64,000 nt of DNA, taken from NCBI RefSeq assembly GCF_058153355.1, contig NZ_CM177019.1; one strand, 5' to 3'. The notes below the pieces were generated by a model that worked only from the letters and a program-made list of their open reading frames with translations, was not told the DNA's origin and did not search any database. The stretch's first letter is position 1; each line of letters starts with the position of its first letter. The position numbers and the translations under genes were made by a program. Shown here piece after piece: positions 5,609-47,653 of the stretch.

Positions 5609-5621
5609 CGGCATAACGCCG
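5609..5621. repeat. 13-bp target-site duplication, left copy (cggcataacgccg)
   Basis: identical 13-mer flanks both IS4 ends (second copy 7048..7060). Confidence 0.85.
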
Positions 5622-7047
5622 TAATGCCAGTCAGTTAAGCAACTGACTGGCTCTTTTTCGGGGCTGTGGGGTATTTCCAGGGCCTCTCCTTTACCACTCT
5701 CGGGAAGGCCCTTTCCCTTCTTGTCGGTAATTTCACAAGTTGTCCCATACTTGCAAGATCGCGCATCAGCTCCGGTATACGTCCCGGTGAAGCGCCCTGC
5801 AATGTCATCAGCATTCTCATCACCATTCCGCATGATTCTGAGAAACTCAGTTGATTCGGCCAGTAACCTTTCAGATGTTCCGCCATTTTAATCATCTGAT
5901 ATCTCACCAGATTATAAGCCAGTAAGACACCCCACAGCTCTTGCTCCACAAGCTCCGGCTTTTTACTTCTCAGCGTCAGCCTGCTCAGTTGCATCGTCTG
6001 TTTTATCTCCCTGTATCCCAGTTCGATTTCCCAGCGATGACTGTACAGATCCGCCATTTCTCCTCCGGGGAAGCGCATGGCGTCCGTCATCGACGTCAGC
6101 AGATGGCAGACTTTTCCTTTGCGCGTCACGGTCAGCAGGCGGGCTGTCACTTCATTTCCCAGTCCCGGCCACTTTTTTCGTGCCTGCGGGCTGGTTTTCA
6201 GCTTCACCAGATGATCGCCTTTACCCAGTTTTCTGATCTCTTCATATTGCGCTCCCTTTCTGAGAGGTATCATCCAGTGGCGGTGTTCTCCCGCCAGGCT
6301 CCAGGCATTTAACAGTCCCAGTGAGTAATAACCTTTATCCATTAACGTCAGAGTGTTATCGCCGGTTTGTTCTATAAGTTGCTCAGCAAGCTCATTTTCG
6401 CTGTTCTTCATCGTGCCGAAGGCTGCAGCCGTCAGCAGATGGCTGGTCAGTTCCATCTGGCAGACCATTTTGACCTGCGGGTAGAGCGCCGGGTTCCCGG
6501 CATGTGTCTGGCGGGGGAAGGCTGCATCGTTCTCTGGTGTATCCGGTGTGCGCCAGAACACACCATCGATGGCCAGCAGGGTCAGGCCGCACCAGTGCGG
6601 ATGCGGCGTGGCGTTATGCCAGAGCTGCGCTGTTTTCGTGAACACGCGGCGGACAGCCTCACTTCCCAGGCGCTGGCGGGCCTGAATAACGGCACTGGGG
6701 GCAACGAAGGGGCGATTGCCCGGCAGCATGATGTCCAGGCGATTCACAATCTGGTGAAGAGGTTCTTTACGCTCAAGCGCCATGCCAACAATACACCAGA
6801 CCATCATTTCGAGGGGAAGACGGCGCTTGCGTAGCGTTACAGTACCTGATTCGGCAAGGCAACGAGAGATGAGTTCGGGGTCGAGGTAATCCCCCAGAGA
6901 AGTCAGTGGGTTACGCAGAGAATCGTAACGGGATACCAGATCAAGAGCCTGTCCAATGTGCATAAAAAAATCCGGAAACAAGTGAGCGTTTCCGGATTCT
7001 TACACAGCCACTGGATCGGTCAACTGATCCTTAACTGATCGGCATTA
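5622..7047 (-). mobile_element. insertion sequence IS4, complete 1426-bp copy
   Basis: 1426 bp matches recalled IS4 length; imperfect terminal inverted repeats (taatgccag... / ...ggcatta); single 442-aa transposase; flanked by 13-bp direct repeat. Confidence 0.9.
5635..6963 (-). CDS. insG: IS4 transposase InsG (442 aa from Met [10 protein letters not shown])
   Basis: ORF 5635..6981; sequence recognised as the IS4-family DDE transposase. Confidence 0.9.
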
Positions 7048-7060
7048 CGGCATAACGCCG
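7048..7060. repeat. 13-bp target-site duplication, right copy (cggcataacgccg)
   Basis: identical to 5609..5621. Confidence 0.85.
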
Positions 7061-22752: not shown

Positions 22753-22946
22753 TTATCGTTATGATCTACAAAGGCCACCAGCATAACAAATCCGTGGTCG
22801 GTGGCAAAAAAAGCAGATTTCGCTTATTAAAACTGCATATTGATTGAAGTTTGAATAAACGCGCGATTTTTTTAAAAAGTTTGTTGACCTCAGGTCATGA
22901 TTTCCCTAAATTAGCGCCCGTTCCAGCAAGACAGGAACGACAATTT

Positions 22947-23034
22947 GGTGAGGTGTCCGAGTGGCTGAAGGAGCACGCCTGGAAAGTGTGTATACGGCAA
23001 CGTATCGGGGGTTCGAATCCCCCCCTCACCGCCA
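22947..23034 (+). tRNA. serX: tRNA-Ser (anticodon GGA), 88 nt with long variable arm
   Basis: ggtgaggtgtccgagtggctgaaggagcacgcctGGAaa...gggggttcgaatcccccctcaccgcca; cloverleaf by eye, CCA-encoded 3' end. Confidence 0.9.
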
Positions 23035-23480
23035 TCTTTAAAGAAGAGCTCGTACGAAAGTACGGGCTTTTTTTTTCGTATATTGCACACACCGGGGGGA
23101 TGAGAAGCCCCGACAGGGGTTCGACAACTGGCGACAGCCAGTTGGACAGACCGTGAACGCAGTGAGCGGGCTGCCCGCAGGGCGAGCGAAGCGAGTCAAT
23201 CCCCCCCTCACCGCCATCTTTAAAGAAGAGCTCGTACGAAGGTACGGGCTTTTTTTTCGTATATTGCACACACCGGGGGATGAAAAGCCCCGACCGGGGT
23301 TCGACAACTGGCGACAGCCAGTTGGACAGACCGTGAACGCAGTGAGCGGGCTGCCCGCAGGGCGAGCGAAGCGAGTCAATCCCCCCCTCACCGCCATCTT
23401 TAAAGAAGAGCTCGTACGAAGGTACGGGCTTTTTTTTCGTATATTGCACACACCGGGGATGAAAAGCCCTGACCGGGGTA
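23016..23480 (+). repeat. tandem direct repeat array, about 2.6 copies of a ~180-bp unit, each unit beginning with a 19-nt copy of the serX 3' end and a hairpin+T-run
   Basis: aatccccccctcaccgcca recurs at 23016, 23198, 23378; following ~160 bp nearly identical between copies, with internal 8-bp stem caactggc/gccagttg. Confidence 0.85.
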
Positions 23481-23485
23481 CTTAG

Positions 23486-24172
23486 TTAATGCAACGGTTC
23501 ACCCTTTGTCGCCGCGGCTAATGGGCGAATTTTGTCACGGGTATCCCAGACCGGAGGGATTTCATCCAATTTAGTGACAGAAGCTCGTACAAAAGGCACC
23601 CGTGCAATAGTCATAATCGTATTCAACCAACGGTCACGAATAATGCGATCTGCCCTTTCATGACTCGGATCATCCAGCTCAATAACACAGACTATTTTAT
23701 TGTTCTTCTTTGAAACCAGAACATAATCCATTGCCATTCCATTATAAATTGCAAAGAAACGCTTTCTTTCTTCTTCGCTAAACTCGGGTTGTTCTGGAAA
23801 GTTGATCAAGCGCCCCAGAGAGACCTGGCAATGGATATGGCAATAATGTCCAAACCATTTCTCCAGATTATCGAAATAGATTTTCTCACAACGCGTAATT
23901 AACCACTCTTTTCCTTCCAATAAAATGCCTTCGGCAACCATTCCCTGAAATAACTCATCTCGTTCTTGCCAACGAGAATCACGATAGGTTTTCTGCGGTG
24001 TATAGCTCCTTGTCGACGCCTTAACAGCAGGGGAAGTTGCAGATGAAGGGACTGGTTGCAATTTAGTGATGATTACCGATGAGGCAACTTTTCGGAGTGT
24101 CAATTTTCTGGCAACAGCAAAACCGGCGACAAATGCAATTGTCAAACAAGTTACAAAAACCATAAAGCTCAT
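23486..24172 (-). CDS. orphan membrane-anchored protein with putative DUF2726 / PD-(D/E)xK nuclease-like C-terminal domain (228 aa)
   Basis: ORF 23486..24172 with AGGTGA Shine-Dalgarno; N-terminal TM helix; C-terminal motif AMDYVLV...KIVCVIELDDPSHE resembles the D..(D/E)LD..H signature I associate with DUF2726; not a gene I recall at this K-12 position. Confidence 0.55.
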   Translation of the reverse strand: MSFMVFVTCLTIAFVAGFAVARKLTLRKVASSVIITKLQPVPSSATSPAVKASTRSYTPQKTYRDSRWQERDELFQGMVAEGILLEGKEWLITRCEKIYFDNLEKWFGHYCHIHCQVSLGRLINFPEQPEFSEEERKRFFAIYNGMAMDYVLVSKKNNKIVCVIELDDPSHERADRIIRDRWLNTIMTIARVPFVRASVTKLDEIPPVWDTRDKIRPLAAATKGEPLH

Positions 24173-24721
24173 AATTAATCTTCACCTATCCATGTTGATT
24201 ATATTTCATTACTAACGCTACTCGCTGTAGCGAGTTACATGCCAACAATTCAACGATCCATATATAGTTAGTATCATGTTTTGATTATTACAACCATACC
24301 TATTTTGCCATTGCGGCTTGCCGTCCACAAAAAATAACAACACAAAATATTAGCCAAAGAATTAATTAAGATTAACCTGACATTTTTAATGTTATCCCTA
24401 AAAAATATAATCAGGGGAATGTATTCGGTGTTAATCAATCAGCCAAATTATGGTCCATTATTGATGGAACCTCATACGCAAAATTGGCACCAGACCTCCT
24501 GTACAGGTTGAATGGCTGAAAAAAGATAAGCAGATGCTCGCTTTTTGGGCTTCTGGAAGAAAAACTCTCCGCACTGGCGGTATTACACTGGTCTGGTGCT
24601 ATGACGACAAATGCCCGGTAAGAGTATCTAAACCTGAATTCATTTCAGCTTATCAACACGCTCAAAGTCGCCCCCTGAACGTTAACCTGAAGTGAAAATC
24701 TTTGCTGTTAATGAAATAAAA

Positions 24722-24745
24722 CAAAGCCCGGTTCGCCCGGGCTCT
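24722..24745 (-). terminator. hairpin downstream of phoH (putative terminator)
   Basis: agcccggttcgcccgggct inverted repeat just 3' of the phoH stop. Confidence 0.5.
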
Positions 24746-24760
24746 GCGCCGATAATACAC

Positions 24761-26186: not shown

Positions 26187-27458
26187 TTAAACTCGCAATA
26201 ATGCGCTTCCAAGATAATCGTTCGCGTCCTTCACCCCCGGCAGCGCAAAAAAATAACCGCCGCCGATGGGTTTAACGTATTCCTCCAGCGCTTCACCATT
26301 GAGCCTTTTTTGTACTGTCAGGAAGCCCTTTTCCAGATCGTGTTGGTAGCAGACAAACAGCAACCCCATATCCAGTTGCCCGGAGTTGGTAACACCCAAC
26401 GAATAACTGTAGCCACGACGCAGCATCAGACTGGACTCGCTCTCCGTCGTGCGGGGATTCGCCAGCCGGATATGGCTGTCCAGCGCGATCACCTTCCCTT
26501 CCGGATCACTGGCGTAATCGGGAACATCATGCTCATGCTGCATTCCCAGCGGCGCACCGGTTTGCTTATCGCGACCAAAAATTGTCTGCTGTTCTTTCAG
26601 CGGCGTTCTGTCCCAAAATTCCACTCGAAACTGAATCAAACGCACCGCCTGGTAGCTGCCGCCGATAGCCCACGCAGGCTCCTGCTGATCTGCCGTCACC
26701 CACACTACTTTTTGCATCACTTTCGCATTTTGGCTGTCAGGATTAGCAGTGCCGTCTTTGAAACCCAGCAAATTAATCGGCGTCTCTTTGCCTTTACTAC
26801 GCGCTGCGTGATCGGAAATAAACCCTTCCCGCTTCCAGCGCACACTGAGCAAATCCGGCGTATGTTTGATGATATCGCGCAGCGCATGGATCACCGTGTC
26901 CTGGGTGTTGGCGCAAATTTGTAGCAACACATCACCATGACATAACGCCGCATCCAGCGAGTCGTTGGGGAAACGCGTCATCTTCTGCAACTTTTTCGGC
27001 ATCTGTGGCGCAAGACCAAACCGTTCATCAAACAACGAGTGACCAACTGACAACGTGATGGTGAGATTGTCGGGCGCAATGTAGCCGCCAAGAATGCCGG
27101 AATCGCGTGGTGGCAGGCGCGGATTTGGCGTTTCTGGTGCTGCTCCGCCCTGAGTCAGAAAAGCAAAACGCTGAGTCAACAAGCGAAACAATCGCTCAAG
27201 ATCAGCTTTATCGCTGGCAAGCACATCAAACGCCACCAGCATCATTGTCGCCTGCTGCGGCGTCAGAATACCCGCCTGATGTTCGCCATAAAACGGCTGC
27301 GCTTCACTGCGCGCATCCGGTGAAAGCGTCCCCGGCGCACTTAGTGGTTTTTGCGCATGCGCTACCGGGCAACTTCCCGCCAGTGCCAGCGCGCCAATCC
27401 CTTTCAGTAAACGTCGGCGTGACGGTTCATTCACGCCGTTTTCATCTTCATACTGCAT
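26187..27458 (-). CDS. efeB: Dyp-type haem peroxidase EfeB with Tat signal (423 aa)
   Basis: ORF 26187..27458; twin-arginine motif [13 protein letters not shown]; synteny. Confidence 0.9.
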
Positions 27459-27463
27459 AACGC

Positions 27464-28591
27464 TTAATCCAGTCCCAGCACACCACGAAGTTGCGCCAGA
27501 TCTTCCGCCAGCGCAGTAATCGGCCCTTTCAGCGCATTACGATCGGCATCGGTCAATTTGTCGTAGGTTTCAAAACCGTCTTTAGTACGGTATTTCGCCA
27601 GAATGGTATCGACCTTTTTGAAGTTAGCATCGACTTTTGCCAGCAGTTCCGGGTTGGCTTTTTGTAGTTGTGGACGCAGCAGATCGACAATTTTCTGCGA
27701 GCCTTCAACGTTAGCCTGGAAGTCCCACAGATCGGTGTGGCTGTAGCGATCTTCTTCACCGCTGATTTTGCTGGCTGCTACTTCCTCAATCAGTCCGGCT
27801 GCGCCGCCGACCACTTTTGAAGGTGGGAAAGCCAGTTCACTGATGCGTTTTTGCAAATCGACCACATCGGTATAAAGCTGGTCAGCGTACTGATCCATTC
27901 CTTTGGTAGTGTTGTCGCCAAACAAGGCTTTTTCCAGACGATGGAATCCGGTGAATTTCGGATCGGCGGCTTTTTGCTCGTAATCATCTTCACGGGCGTC
28001 AATGCTGCCATCCAGATCGGAGAAAAGTTCAGCAATCGGTTCGATGCGCTCATAGTGCTGGCGCGTCGGCGCATACAGTGCTTTCGCTTTTTCGATATCG
28101 CCTGCTTTAATAGCGTCGGTAAAGGCTTTGGTGTCGGTCACCAGTTGCGTGGTTTCCGCCATGACATACGCTTTATATGCAGTAATTGCACCACCAAGAC
28201 TTAACAGCGCATCACTTTGCGCCGCATCCACCGTTGCTTCACCTTTGACGATCAACTTCCCTTTCGGGTTAGTCAGCAGACCGCAGGTCATATCGTATTC
28301 GCCAGGCTGTAAATTCGCCGTCATTTTCTGGCTAAAACCAGGGGCGATATTTTCCCGCTCTTCCACCACCATTACGCCTTTGAGGATCTCCCACTCCAGC
28401 GCCTTCTGGCTGTGGTTCTGAATAATGAACTGTGTTTTCCCGGCGTTAACCGTAATGGTCATCGGTTCGCACTGTTTATCCGTCACGGTCACTTTGACCT
28501 GCGGAACATCAGCAGCGTTAGCCATAAAAGCAGAGGAGAACAGCGCAGCCACGCTTAATTGCAGTGCACTATGGCGGAAGTTAATGGTCAT
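27464..28591 (-). CDS. efeO: periplasmic iron uptake protein EfeO (375 aa)
   Basis: ORF 27464..28591; signal peptide; synteny. Confidence 0.9.
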
Positions 28592-28648
28592 GACGAGACT
28601 ATCCCTTTAAAGTATGTTGTAACTAAGCAAAAGTTTGCGTCATTTTCG

Positions 28649-29479
28649 TTACGCGGAGCGAGACGCTGTCGCCCCTGCGCGCGGCGGCAGAGCAAATGCC
28701 ACCAGCGCCGGGATGAGATAAATAAACCAGACGGCGACTTCGCTGACGCTCGGCGCTTCCTGATAACCAAAGATACCTTCCATCAGCGTACCGAACAGCG
28801 AGTGAGTTGAGAGCACCGCGCTCATATCGAAGACGATTTCCTGAAAGTGGTTCCACAGCCCGGCTTCATGAAACGCGCGAATAGCACCTGCCGCCAGCCC
28901 TGCGGCGACGAAGAGAATAAAGAGGCTGGTCCATTTAAAAAACGCGCCAAGATTGAGGCGAATACCGCCCCAGTAGAGCAGGAAGCCGAGCACCACGGCT
29001 GTAGCAAGACCGAGCATTGCACCCAGCGGAGGCCAGATCCCGACATCTTGTTGAAACGCCGCCAGCAGGAAAAAGACCGACTCCAGCCCTTCCCTTGCAA
29101 CGGCAAAAAAGACCATCATCACCAGCGCCCAGCCATGATGATTCCCACGCTGCAATGCGCTATCGACTGCCTGTTCCAGTTGCACTTTGACGTTGCGCGA
29201 CACTTTACGCATCCAGAAAACCATCCAGGTGAGGATCACCACGGCAATCACCGCCACGATACCTTCGAACAATTCCTGCTCTTTTTGCGGAAATTCGCCG
29301 GTGGTTTCATTAATGAAGATACCCAGCCCCAGGCACAACGCAGCGGCTAGCAACACGCCAATCCACATGACACCAATCCATCGACCTCGCTGGGTACGCT
29401 TAAGATAGCTGGCAATCAGGCTGACAATCAGCGCGGCTTCAAGTCCTTCGCGCAACATAATGAGAAACGGAACAAACAT
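28649..29479 (-). CDS. efeU: ferrous iron permease EfeU, apparently intact (276 aa from Met MFVPFLIMLREG)
   Basis: single uninterrupted ORF 28649..29488; two REGLE-type motifs (MLREGLEAAL, AREGLESVFF) typical of FTR1 permeases. Confidence 0.85.
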   Translation of the reverse strand: MFVPFLIMLREGLEAALIVSLIASYLKRTQRGRWIGVMWIGVLLAAALCLGLGIFINETTGEFPQKEQELFEGIVAVIAVVILTWMVFWMRKVSRNVKVQLEQAVDSALQRGNHHGWALVMMVFFAVAREGLESVFFLLAAFQQDVGIWPPLGAMLGLATAVVLGFLLYWGGIRLNLGAFFKWTSLFILFVAAGLAAGAIRAFHEAGLWNHFQEIVFDMSAVLSTHSLFGTLMEGIFGYQEAPSVSEVAVWFIYLIPALVAFALPPRAGATASRSA

Positions 29480-29698
29480 GCCACCCACCCTTAAACGTTT
29501 TTCTGAGTCAATCTATGCAAAGAAAAGTAAATCGCAGTGATAGCGATTATCATTACGGTGAAGAAAAACACAAGCGGAATGTAGTGATAATGATGAGGAA
29601 ATGTAAATTTTTTTTGAGAGAAAATGCAGAGGGCAATCACTGATTGCCCTCTGCCTGCTTCTGATTATGACGTGGGATTTTCGGTAAAACGCCTTCCC

Positions 29699-31207
<1,509 letters not shown>

Positions 31208-43690: not shown

Positions 43691-44927
43691 TCACCGCTTC
43701 ATTCAACACGCTATCAAACTTATCCATTGGGCAGAAACCATCAGCGTCTATCGGGCAGCCGGTTAATTCCAGCGTCACGCGCTGAGCCGGAGCCTGCAAC
43801 GTTAACGCGTCGGCATTACGCAACTGTTCCGAACTCTGATACACATATTCAATTTTCATCAAATCGCGATTAGCTTTGCTGTCATGCCAACGCTGGAAAA
43901 CGATTTTGCCGCCAATCGGCGTGCGTTCGTTCTGGTCATGCAACTGATACGGTTTGAAATCAAGTGCCGTTAACAGAGAGGCAATGTTTGAGTCGTGCCC
44001 AACCAGTACCGTGATTTTCGGTGCACTGGCGCGATCTGTCACCAGCGCTCTGTCGATATAACTGACCAGTGGTTTCGCAACATTGCGCGCCACTTCCGGT
44101 GAGGTAAACAGGCTATCCTGGTAACCGTTTTTCAGCTTCGACAACACTTTCCACTGTTGGTCAGATTTGATTTCTCCCCACGCCACCTGATCCATCGGGA
44201 AACCTTCGTAGTATTGCAAAGTAAACGCATCTACCAGCGAGTTGCCGACTTTCAGCGGCCCGGAAACGCCCGGTTCTTGTTGATACTTCGCGCTAAAGGT
44301 GTTTTTGCCATCTACAAGCGAACACTGTTGCTTCTCTTTACAGGCAGGAGAATCTTTATAGTTAACGATTTTTTCCAGTAGCTTGTAGCTGTCGGTAAGC
44401 TGGAGTTTGCCGAGCTCTTTCTCCATTGCCGCCACCGCCTGTTCACTGAATGCGGCGGAATCATCGGTGATCACCGGGTTAAAGGTTGGGTCCATGGTGC
44501 CCATTTTTTCCTGGTGGTGGACTGGAATGTCACACCCAGGGAATGCGCCAGTAATAAAGAACTGCGCGGTTGCGACGGTACGTTGCAGGCTGTTGGCATA
44601 GGCATAAACGGTGTCCGGCGGCGGGCATTCCCCCGAATTCACCATCCCCTGCTCTGCCAGCCACTCACGCATATAGTGGCCCATATACACTTCCAGCACA
44701 CCGCCTTTGGTGGTGAGCTGCCCACCGGGGACGTCCCATTCTGGCCATTTATTCGGTGTGGATTGTTCCAGCACACTGCCATTGTTCGCCAGCGGCGCAC
44801 GTAAGTTATGGCGGCTCATCATGAGCACTTGCTGCAACTGATAGCCTTCCGGTACGGTTTGTGCCTGAGCATTTGAAGCGAGTAAAACTATCCCTGCCAC
44901 AGCTGCGGCGATTAGCGTTTTGTTCAT
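43686..44927 (-). CDS. agp: periplasmic glucose-1-phosphatase Agp (413 aa from Met [10 protein letters not shown])
   Basis: ORF 43686..44951; histidine acid phosphatase motif RHNLRAP. Confidence 0.9.
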
Positions 44928-45221
44928 TCCTGGCACCTCTTTTGTTATCAATCACCAAAGAGTGTGACAGAAATATGACATTTTTCCGGGAACAGGTTCG
45001 CAAAATGGCTTGTTGAGTGCCTGTTTTTCTATATTTGTCATTAAAAAAAGGCAAGATTTGACGCAACCTATGCATGATTAGCCCCTGCCTCGTGTACGCC
45101 GTTGATGATTTCACCATGGGCTAGACAGAATATCACCGACGTTATCGATACAGGGGCAATATTTACTAGTAAAAAGAGAATGTGAGACTAATAAAAACTA
45201 TTTTAGCACATGTCTTTATCA

Positions 45222-46475
45222 TTAGATGGCATAACGATTTAAATAGTCCAGTTGCGCTTTCATTTCCTTATGGTTTAACTGGTATGACTGAGCAAAAAGT
45301 TCAGTAGGGAGGTAAACGTCATAATGATTGCCAGTATTCATTAAATAACCATACTCAAGATCTTCATCCGTTGAAAAGGATTCACTTCCCAAGGAGATTG
45401 ATCCCACATTACAGGCAACAATAAACAATGAACAAATGCTATCTGAAAGCACAGCAAGGAAATTCTTCACTGCTTTAACCTTTTCCGGAGAGTCGGTATT
45501 TAAAACAAGCGAACCCTTGTTATCATTAAATATAAACTCGGGTAAATGCAATATGCATCTTTCGTCATTCAAGCAACTACCAATGAATTCTTTTTTAAAC
45601 TTAATAAAATTCGACGCTAAAGAATTACCCATATCCTGAATTTGGTTGTCAGAATGCAGATCAACGCCAAATAATGTCTTAATATCTTCCCTGAGATTAA
45701 AGAATGCTGCATCAACAAAAGACTCAATCACTTGTTTATCAACAATTTTAATAAATTCGTCGTATACTTCTTTTTGCGTCTTTTGACTACCAAGCGCCCA
45801 TGAATAATCAACGTGTTTTATAACCAGTATGGCTCTTAACAGACAATATCCATCGCCATCTACAGGCGCGTATTTTAATTTATGTGCTTGATTAATTTCA
45901 CTCTGAATAAAAGATATACCAGACAAATCAATACCAGTAACTGAATCATATATTCCCGGCGTATTTATCCATTTTGGCTGGACACTCGTAATTTCATCAT
46001 CATCAAAGCAATACTCAGAAAAAACATCATTACACTCATTTAAGATATCAACATATGCTATAAATTTATACCAACAGCTACTTTTAAAGCCTGCAATAGC
46101 CTGTGAAAACATACCCGGCAAGGATATATTAACAAGCTCTCTTTCTTGAAAATATTGTATAGTATAGGTAATGCCTCCTGAATCCCCTGAATAAGTGTTT
46201 GTATCATGAGTACGTAATGTTTTCATAAATGAAGATAAATCATTATCATTTTGCATTTCCTCTAATTCTGTTTCTAGTGATTCACACACCAGGCATGAAA
46301 TATTTTCTTCTTTCCGCATGATTTCATTGTACAACCGCATAAAACACTCTAGTTTTTGTTCAAAAAGCGTGATTGAACATTTTTGATTTTCTTCGCGCCT
46401 GGTTTTTATATCGGCCCAGGCTGTTTTCAAATAATTATTAGCACTGCAACTTACTCCATGTATATTACTACCCAT
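45222..46475 (-). CDS. yccE: uncharacterised protein YccE (417 aa)
   Basis: ORF 45222..46475; position between agp and cbpA as in K-12; function unknown. Confidence 0.7.
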   Translation of the reverse strand: MGSNIHGVSCSANNYLKTAWADIKTRREENQKCSITLFEQKLECFMRLYNEIMRKEENISCLVCESLETELEEMQNDNDLSSFMKTLRTHDTNTYSGDSGGITYTIQYFQERELVNISLPGMFSQAIAGFKSSCWYKFIAYVDILNECNDVFSEYCFDDDEITSVQPKWINTPGIYDSVTGIDLSGISFIQSEINQAHKLKYAPVDGDGYCLLRAILVIKHVDYSWALGSQKTQKEVYDEFIKIVDKQVIESFVDAAFFNLREDIKTLFGVDLHSDNQIQDMGNSLASNFIKFKKEFIGSCLNDERCILHLPEFIFNDNKGSLVLNTDSPEKVKAVKNFLAVLSDSICSLFIVACNVGSISLGSESFSTDEDLEYGYLMNTGNHYDVYLPTELFAQSYQLNHKEMKAQLDYLNRYAI

Positions 46476-46732
46476 ATATAGCGCCTATAAAATTTAATAA
46501 ATAATGACGTCCTAGTTAAGCTTAAAGTGCCTGATTTAACTATCAAAAATCGCTCACCCTTTTACCTGTTTAAACTATGCTCAGCAATCCATCTTGACGC
46601 CACCTCCTCTCCACGATGATTTCAATAACATATTCTGTGTTGGCATATGAAATTTTGAGGATTACCCTACACTTATAGGAGTTACCTTACAGGGGTTCCT
46701 TCAATTTGTGTTGATTTACGCGAGATAACGCT

Positions 46733-47653
46733 ATGGAACTAAAGGATTATTACGCCATCATGGGCGTGAAACCGACGGACGATCTCAAGACAATCAAGAC
46801 CGCCTATCGTCGACTGGCCCGCAAATACCATCCTGATGTCAGCAAAGAACCGGATGCCGAAGCCCGCTTCAAAGAGGTCGCTGAAGCCTGGGAAGTGTTA
46901 AGTGATGAACAACGTCGCGCTGAGTATGATCAGATGTGGCAACATCGCAACGATCCGCAATTTAACCGTCAATTCCATCATGACGACGGTCAGAGTTTTA
47001 ACGCCGAAGATTTTGACGATATCTTCTCGTCAATTTTCGGTCAGCATGCCCGCCAGAGCCGTCAACGCCCCGCCACCCGCGGCCACGATATTGAAATCGA
47101 AGTGGCGGTATTCCTGGAAGAAACGCTTACTGAGCACAAGCGTACCATCAGCTATAACCTGCCGGTTTATAACGCCTTTGGCATGATCGAACAGGAAATC
47201 CCGAAAACGCTGAATGTGAAGATCCCGGCGGGCGTCGGCAATGGTCAACGCATCCGCCTGAAAGGCCAGGGAACGCCGGGCGAAAATGGCGGCCCAAATG
47301 GCGATTTGTGGCTGGTGATTCATATTGCGCCGCATCCATTGTTTGATATTGTCGGCCAGGATCTGGAAATTGTGGTGCCGGTTAGCCCGTGGGAAGCGGC
47401 GCTGGGTGCTAAAGTCACCGTTCCAACACTGAAAGAAAGCATTTTGCTAACTATCCCGCCGGGCAGTCAGGCCGGGCAACGATTACGCGTTAAAGGCAAA
47501 GGCCTGGTGAGCAAAAAACAGACCGGCGATCTGTATGCGGTACTGAAAATCGTGATGCCGCCGAAACCGGATGAAAATACGGCCGCGCTGTGGCAGCAAC
47601 TGGCAGACGCCCAGTCGTCTTTTGATCCACGTAAAGATTGGGGGAAAGCATGA
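46733..47653 (+). CDS. cbpA: curved-DNA-binding DnaJ homologue CbpA (306 aa)
   Basis: ORF 46733..47653; J-domain with HPD motif (KYHPDVSKE). Confidence 0.9.

Follow-up and report, generated by a model that had tools for sequence, protein, structure and literature searches.

An unbroken efeU and a probably working efeUOB iron-uptake operon in a non-K-12 Escherichia coli chromosome

Does an E. coli chromosome that keeps efeU in one piece also keep a working iron importer? The Efe system of K-12 is non-functional through a frameshift in efeU (PMC2808357), and in O157:H7 and Nissle 1917 EfeUOB is described as a functional low-pH ferrous-iron transporter (Grosse et al. 2006; Cao et al. 2007; both as cited in later papers). 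We analyzed a stretch of 64,000 nucleotides, here called the window, for which the original prediction held that EfeUOB is likely functional. The sequence features we examined support that view: the frame is intact, the motifs, the EfeB residues and the proximal promoter are in place, and the genes are under purifying selection. From them we consider it very probable that the intact efeUOB operon, which lies on the minus strand of an E. coli chromosome other than that of K-12, is a working one. Such a strain should have a working EfeUOB iron route in acidic, iron-poor conditions, unlike K-12 but like about 93% of the complete E. coli genomes, for which a working route is equally to be expected; the result has little importance beyond annotation. 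Mildly useful by-products are a substitution, A216V, at an otherwise invariant residue of EfeU and a rare, deeply divergent class of efeUOB alleles.

The efeU frame and its protein family

The six-frame list of open reading frames contains a single unbroken efeU frame on the minus strand at 28649..29488, which encodes 279 aa from a GTG. An ATG nine bases 3' of this GTG, at 29479, gives 276 aa, and it is this ATG that RefSeq uses as the start in both the closest complete genome and O157:H7 Sakai. Read from the ATG, the coding sequence (28649..29479, minus strand; 276 aa plus a TAA stop at 28649-28651) is colinear with Sakai EfeU, and its product matches the FTR1 family over residues 1-275 (Pfam PF03239, E=2.8e-89, 299.7 bits against a cutoff of 25.3), the EfeU equivalog model NF041756 of NCBIfam (330.3 bits, cutoff 255) and the EfeU/Ftr1 subfamily model TIGR00145 (350.8 bits, cutoff 303.8). 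These profile scores exclude a chance ORF, and efeU in the window is a genuine gene.

EfeU is described as a 276-aa, seven-transmembrane member of the OFeT family, acting with a Tat substrate, EfeB, and a Sec substrate, EfeO (PMC9174327). In the window, its two REGLE motifs occupy residues 10-14 in TM1 (29438..29452, minus strand) and residues 129-133 in TM4 (29081..29095, minus strand). Both are unchanged in all 105 Enterobacterales sequences listed; for the first motif the search pattern itself fixed those columns, whereas the columns of the second are independent of it. An unbroken frame of 276-279 aa with both REGLE motifs, as originally described, is thus confirmed by the ORF list, the profile scores and the motif positions. 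A hydropathy scan finds six clear segments, with the stretch expected to form TM4, around the charged REGLE (129-133), falling below threshold. An AlphaFold2 model built on a 51-sequence alignment has seven long helices, with two further short helices in loop 6; its reliability is low, and with a mean pLDDT of 51 and a pTM of 0.32 it lends weak support to the helix count only and is too poor for a fold search or a burial analysis. A sequence search of solved structures returned zero matches to EfeU at E<=0.01.

The K-12 lesion and its frequency

What separates this gene from its K-12 counterpart? The DNA alignment of efeU to that of a K-12 derivative (ycdN) contains a single gap, at column 106, where K-12 is without one G: at nt 105/106, in codon 36, GGATT-GTGT in K-12 stands opposite GGATTGGTGT in the window and in its relative EC42405, the ungapped K-12 sequence at the site being GGATTGTGT. 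Both Gs of this pair (efeU nt 105-106) are present in the window at 29374..29375 on the minus strand. Translated as it stands, K-12 efeU ends after residue 36; with the G put back it encodes 276 aa and differs from the window's EfeU at residue 216 alone, and the locus and its neighbors are the same in the two. The K-12 derivative in question, NEB5-alpha, has its efeU annotated as "frameshifted", and PMC3577903 leaves the K-12 frameshift unmentioned. The statement that K-12 efeU is frameshifted and cryptic is therefore borne out by alignment and translation, and the 1-bp deletion and the stop after codon 36 that define the K-12 cryptic allele are absent from the window. An internal frameshift or premature stop relative to a functional EfeU had been named as what would refute the original reading, and alignment to efeU of O157:H7 Sakai, the functional reference, revealed neither in the window's gene.

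How widespread is the deletion? We searched 5426 complete E. coli genomes with a 53-mer placed across the K-12 deletion junction, a probe whose longest word in common with intact alleles is 27 bases (none of 28). It was found in 367 of them, always at 100% identity, and the genomes carrying it among the matches listed are all K-12-type strains as judged by name or genome size (among them MG1655, W3110, BW25113, DH1, HB101 and MC4100); efeU itself is present in 5417 of the 5426. Because the deletion allele is confined to this fraction, and to K-12-type strains among the matches listed, an intact efeU is the rule in E. coli. Judged by these counts, the lesion is a peculiarity of the K-12 lineage, in agreement with the literature. 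An intact efeU is to be expected in almost any non-K-12 E. coli, which makes it less remarkable than had first been implied; an intact efeUOB outside K-12 is a textbook-known situation, and the finding is ordinary.

The operon, its promoter and what might impair it

The two genes that follow efeU lie on the same strand, efeO (27464..28591, minus strand, 375 aa) after a gap of 57 bp and efeB (26187..27458, minus strand, 423 aa) after a further gap of 5 bp. EfeO combines a cupredoxin-like and a peptidase-M75 domain (Pfam Cupredoxin_1 and Peptidase_M75) behind a Sec-type signal peptide, scores 770 bits against the NCBIfam EfeO subfamily model, above its curated cutoff, and is nearly identical to the solved E. 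coli EfeO structure (PDB 7WGU, E=2.4e-229). EfeO of the window shows no deviation at any of the 156 columns on which 90 relatives all agree. EfeB is a DyP-type heme peroxidase/deferrochelatase with Dyp_perox_N and Dyp_perox_C domains; it reaches 614 bits against TIGR01412 "tat_substr_1" (deferrochelatase/peroxidase; cutoff 428) and is nearly identical to YcdB (PDB 2Y4F, E=6.7e-260). A twin-arginine motif, SRRRLLK, lies at its residues 13-19 (27402..27422, minus strand), as expected of a Tat substrate. The arrangement foreseen for the operon, efeO and then efeB with a Tat signal, is found in full, both genes being full length and above curated cutoffs. EfeB also retains D235, H329 and R347, all three invariant in 68 relatives. 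From the crystal-structure literature on EfeB, we take D235 and R347 to be the catalytic Asp and Arg and H329 the heme-ligand His.

The gene order putP-efeU-efeO-efeB-phoH, the protein lengths of 276, 375 and 423 aa, both REGLE motifs, the Tat motif and the three EfeB residues are shared with the functional systems of O157:H7 and Nissle 1917. Compared with Sakai, the proteins are close, differing at 1 residue in EfeU, 3 in EfeO and 13 in EfeB, whereas the efeUOB nucleotides are about 5% divergent (94.7% identity, against 98.6% between K-12 and Sakai). The two efeU genes are equal in length and align with zero gaps, and their 40 differences in 831 nt produce one amino acid change, A216V. Strong purifying selection is visible on all three genes, with dN/dS values against Sakai (Nei-Gojobori) of 0.007 for efeU, 0.020 for efeO and 0.051 for efeB. 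Differences from the O157:H7 and Nissle 1917 systems are EfeU A216V, EfeB L118R and L247V, and a short putP-efeU spacer (219 bp) with a simple terminator hairpin at its end.

How would the parts act together? EfeU is the inner-membrane permease, a member of the oxidase-dependent iron transporter (Ftr1p-like) family, with the REGLE pair expected along the ion path; EfeO is exported through Sec to the periplasm as a cupredoxin-like and M75 protein, and EfeB through Tat as a DyP-type heme peroxidase. By analogy with O157:H7 and Nissle 1917, the three proteins together would import iron supplied as Fe2+, which is probably oxidized and handed over in the periplasm and then moved across the membrane by EfeU. 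The yeast Ftr1p/Fet3p pair (OFeT) offers a more distant comparison: EfeU aligns over its whole length with the FTR1 Pfam family, and REXLE-type motifs stand at its TM1 and TM4 positions; the Glu residues of such motifs are essential in yeast Ftr1p. The partners differ: where yeast has a multicopper oxidase, EfeU is accompanied by EfeO (cupredoxin/M75) and a DyP peroxidase. The extracellular loop 6 of Ftr1p, which has its N-terminus outside, carries a DASE motif on which iron transfer from Fet3p depends; DASE does not occur literally in EfeU, which has QEI(A/V)FD there instead, and QEIAFD may be the EfeU equivalent.

Upstream of efeU, the window agrees with K-12 and Sakai at every one of the 78 bp next to the ATG, a stretch that takes in the Shine-Dalgarno region. 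This stretch contains a Fur-box-like 19-mer, CGTAATGATAATCGCTATC (29539..29557, minus strand; -78 to -60 from the ATG), that agrees with the consensus at 15 of 19 positions and is the sole match with at most 4 mismatches across the 64-kb window; it is the same in K-12 and Sakai. A CpxR-like site (GCAAAGAAAAGTAAA, on the opposite strand) at 29517..29531 (-52 to -38) has one mismatch to GTAAA-N5-GTAAA and is likewise identical in both references. The sole sigma-70-like promoter match, at 29578..29607 on the minus strand (TTTACA, an 18-nt spacer, TACATT), is a match to the consensus only and weak alone, since 3.3 such matches are expected by chance and 1 was found. The literature describes efe expression as controlled by Fur and CpxR and the system as active at low pH. 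From the conserved proximal promoter with its candidate sites, we infer the same control in this strain, with efeUOB expected to be repressed by Fe-Fur and controlled by CpxAR, and its expression highest at low pH and low iron.

The spacer between putP and efeU measures 219 bp in the window and 542 bp in K-12, about 320 bp of the K-12 spacer being absent from the window (29608-29698 region); the K-12 spacer is reported to carry a TRIP1b repeat, 41 bp downstream of putP. At the position of that TRIP1b-bearing spacer, the window has a hairpin followed by a T-rich tail (29626..29654, minus strand; 13-bp stem), which resembles an intrinsic terminator and looks like the terminator of putP.

Could intact genes nonetheless be poorly expressed? 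The remodeled spacer might change acid and iron regulation or lower expression, and this reading can point to the shortened spacer without the part reported to carry TRIP1b and with the terminator hairpin directly upstream, to a sequence that is unrelated to K-12 and Sakai beyond about -130, and to 12-14 differences from K-12 and Sakai between -79 and -130, some of them in the -10-like hexamer of the sigma-70-like match. We nevertheless think it very unlikely, as nothing differs from the references in the 78 bp by the ATG, where the Fur-box-like site, the CpxR-like site and the Shine-Dalgarno region lie, and the -35-like TTTACA is retained; moreover, the distal spacer of Sakai also differs and holds an extra 1.3-kb gene, and since Sakai is a functional reference the distal spacer is evidently dispensable. 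A further suspicion is that the unbroken frame is itself an artefact of sequencing or assembly, a miscalled G in the GG run of a strain truly frameshifted like K-12. A 1-bp length change in a dinucleotide run is indeed a class of error that sequencing can yield, but the chance of it here is negligible: the DNA around efeU is 5% divergent from K-12, so the strain is not K-12, the K-12 deletion is restricted to the 367 genomes above, at least five independent assemblies examined carry identical efeU nucleotides, and an 8.8-kb stretch agrees with two other assemblies at 2-3 mismatches. We regard the sequencing-error idea as effectively refuted by the identical efeU DNA of several independent assemblies and have dropped it.

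An operon that is intact on paper might also be impaired by its substitutions, EfeU A216V, EfeB L118R or both reducing or abolishing iron uptake, in which case the system would be cryptic for a cause other than the K-12 frameshift. Codon 216 of efeU is GTC (Val) in the window (28832..28834, minus strand) and GCC (Ala) in K-12, Sakai and EC42405. We compared EfeU with 104 other Enterobacterales sequences (74-99% identity, among the matches listed to a degenerate 5' pattern): 128 of the 276 positions are invariant in this set, the window departs at one of them, and that one is Ala216, present in 104 of 104. The residue comes after the sixth hydrophobic segment and before the seventh and is therefore predicted to fall in periplasmic loop 6, given an N-terminus outside as reported for Ftr1p, whose own loop 6 is functionally important. 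In EfeB, position 118 (27105-27107) is Arg in the window and Met or Leu in all 68 relatives, and position 247 is Val where the relatives otherwise have Leu or Met. Against these points, Ala to Val is a conservative change, R118 is also found in other E. coli assemblies, and the exact V216 protein can be found on no fewer than 24 contigs of public collections. In some of these assemblies its gene is the window-type efeU allele (0 nt differences in 5 of 8 assemblies examined), in others an ordinary allele that departs from Sakai by only 6-11 nt, and because these are at least two very different nucleotide backgrounds, V216 has arisen or spread repeatedly and persists. This recurrence or spread suggests that the change is tolerated. 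The strong purifying selection on all three genes and the zero stop codons and frameshifts, which are not what a dead operon would be expected to show, also argue against impairment, and we judge this reading unlikely, the preferred one remaining a working operon. We think it improbable that V216 (GCC to GTC) is a functional variant that recurs and not just a neutral polymorphism; if it were, it could alter iron hand-over from EfeO/EfeB or metal selectivity.

One contig carrying V216, an ENA metagenome scaffold (SUZU22-1), has no full-length efeB called after efeO, with short ORFs there instead, which suggests that efeB is disrupted in that sample; the frame still reads as EfeB at its beginning.

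A divergent haplotype and the wider window

Where does this allele sit within E. coli? The efeUOB genes of the window are 94.7-94.9% identical to those of K-12 and Sakai, against 98.6% between K-12 and Sakai, and identity to E. albertii is 92.9% for the window and 94.0% for K-12. By this measure, the window's efeUOB is nearly as far from K-12 and Sakai as E. albertii is from K-12, and the allele is a rare, deep-branching one, about 5% divergent from the common allele. Over efeB-putP (26187-31207), 0 of the 5426 complete genomes reach at least 99% identity, the best being at 98.0%; 19 fall in the 95-99% band and 5400 in the 90-95% band. The two assemblies that agree with the window at 2-3 mismatches in 8.8 kb are drafts (GCA_043012465.1 and GCA_015332025.1). 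In a scan of GTDB species representatives with the degenerate efeU 5' pattern, the Escherichia among the matches listed are E. albertii and two labelled "E. coli", and K-12 is at least as close to the window as any of these three. The efeUOB-putP haplotype may be old and balanced, or it may have been imported from another Escherichia lineage, possibly an unsampled one.

The claim that the window is not from K-12 is upheld by the intact G, by identities of 94.3-97.7%, by the missing part of the K-12 spacer in which TRIP1b is reported and by the missing pgaABCD-dgcT-ycdU genes. Identity to K-12 is 97.7% over 1-22.8 kb, 95.4% over 24.7-64 kb and 94.3% over efeB-putP. The figure of 97.7% lies within the range found between E. 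coli phylogroups, and for this reason the left 22.8 kb weakens the idea of a cryptic Escherichia clade as the source of the whole window. The fall in identity, from 97.7% on the left to 95.4% on the right, occurs across a junction at 22800-24760, with ghrA/tRNA-Ser at 22947-23034. Between phoH and ghrA/tRNA-Ser, K-12 carries about 12 kb (pgaABCD-dgcT-IS3-ycdU) that is absent from the window, which has there only a 228-aa DUF2726 ORF (23486-24172, minus strand).

Elsewhere in the window, a 1.4-kb insertion relative to K-12 (5621-7048), with mdtG/msyB on one side and yceK/mdoH on the other, codes for an IS4-family transposase of 448 aa (Nterm_IS4 and DDE_Tnp_1); K-12 has no IS4-family element at this place. 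Divergence from K-12 is greatest in the yccE region (44000-47000), where identity is only 84-89%.
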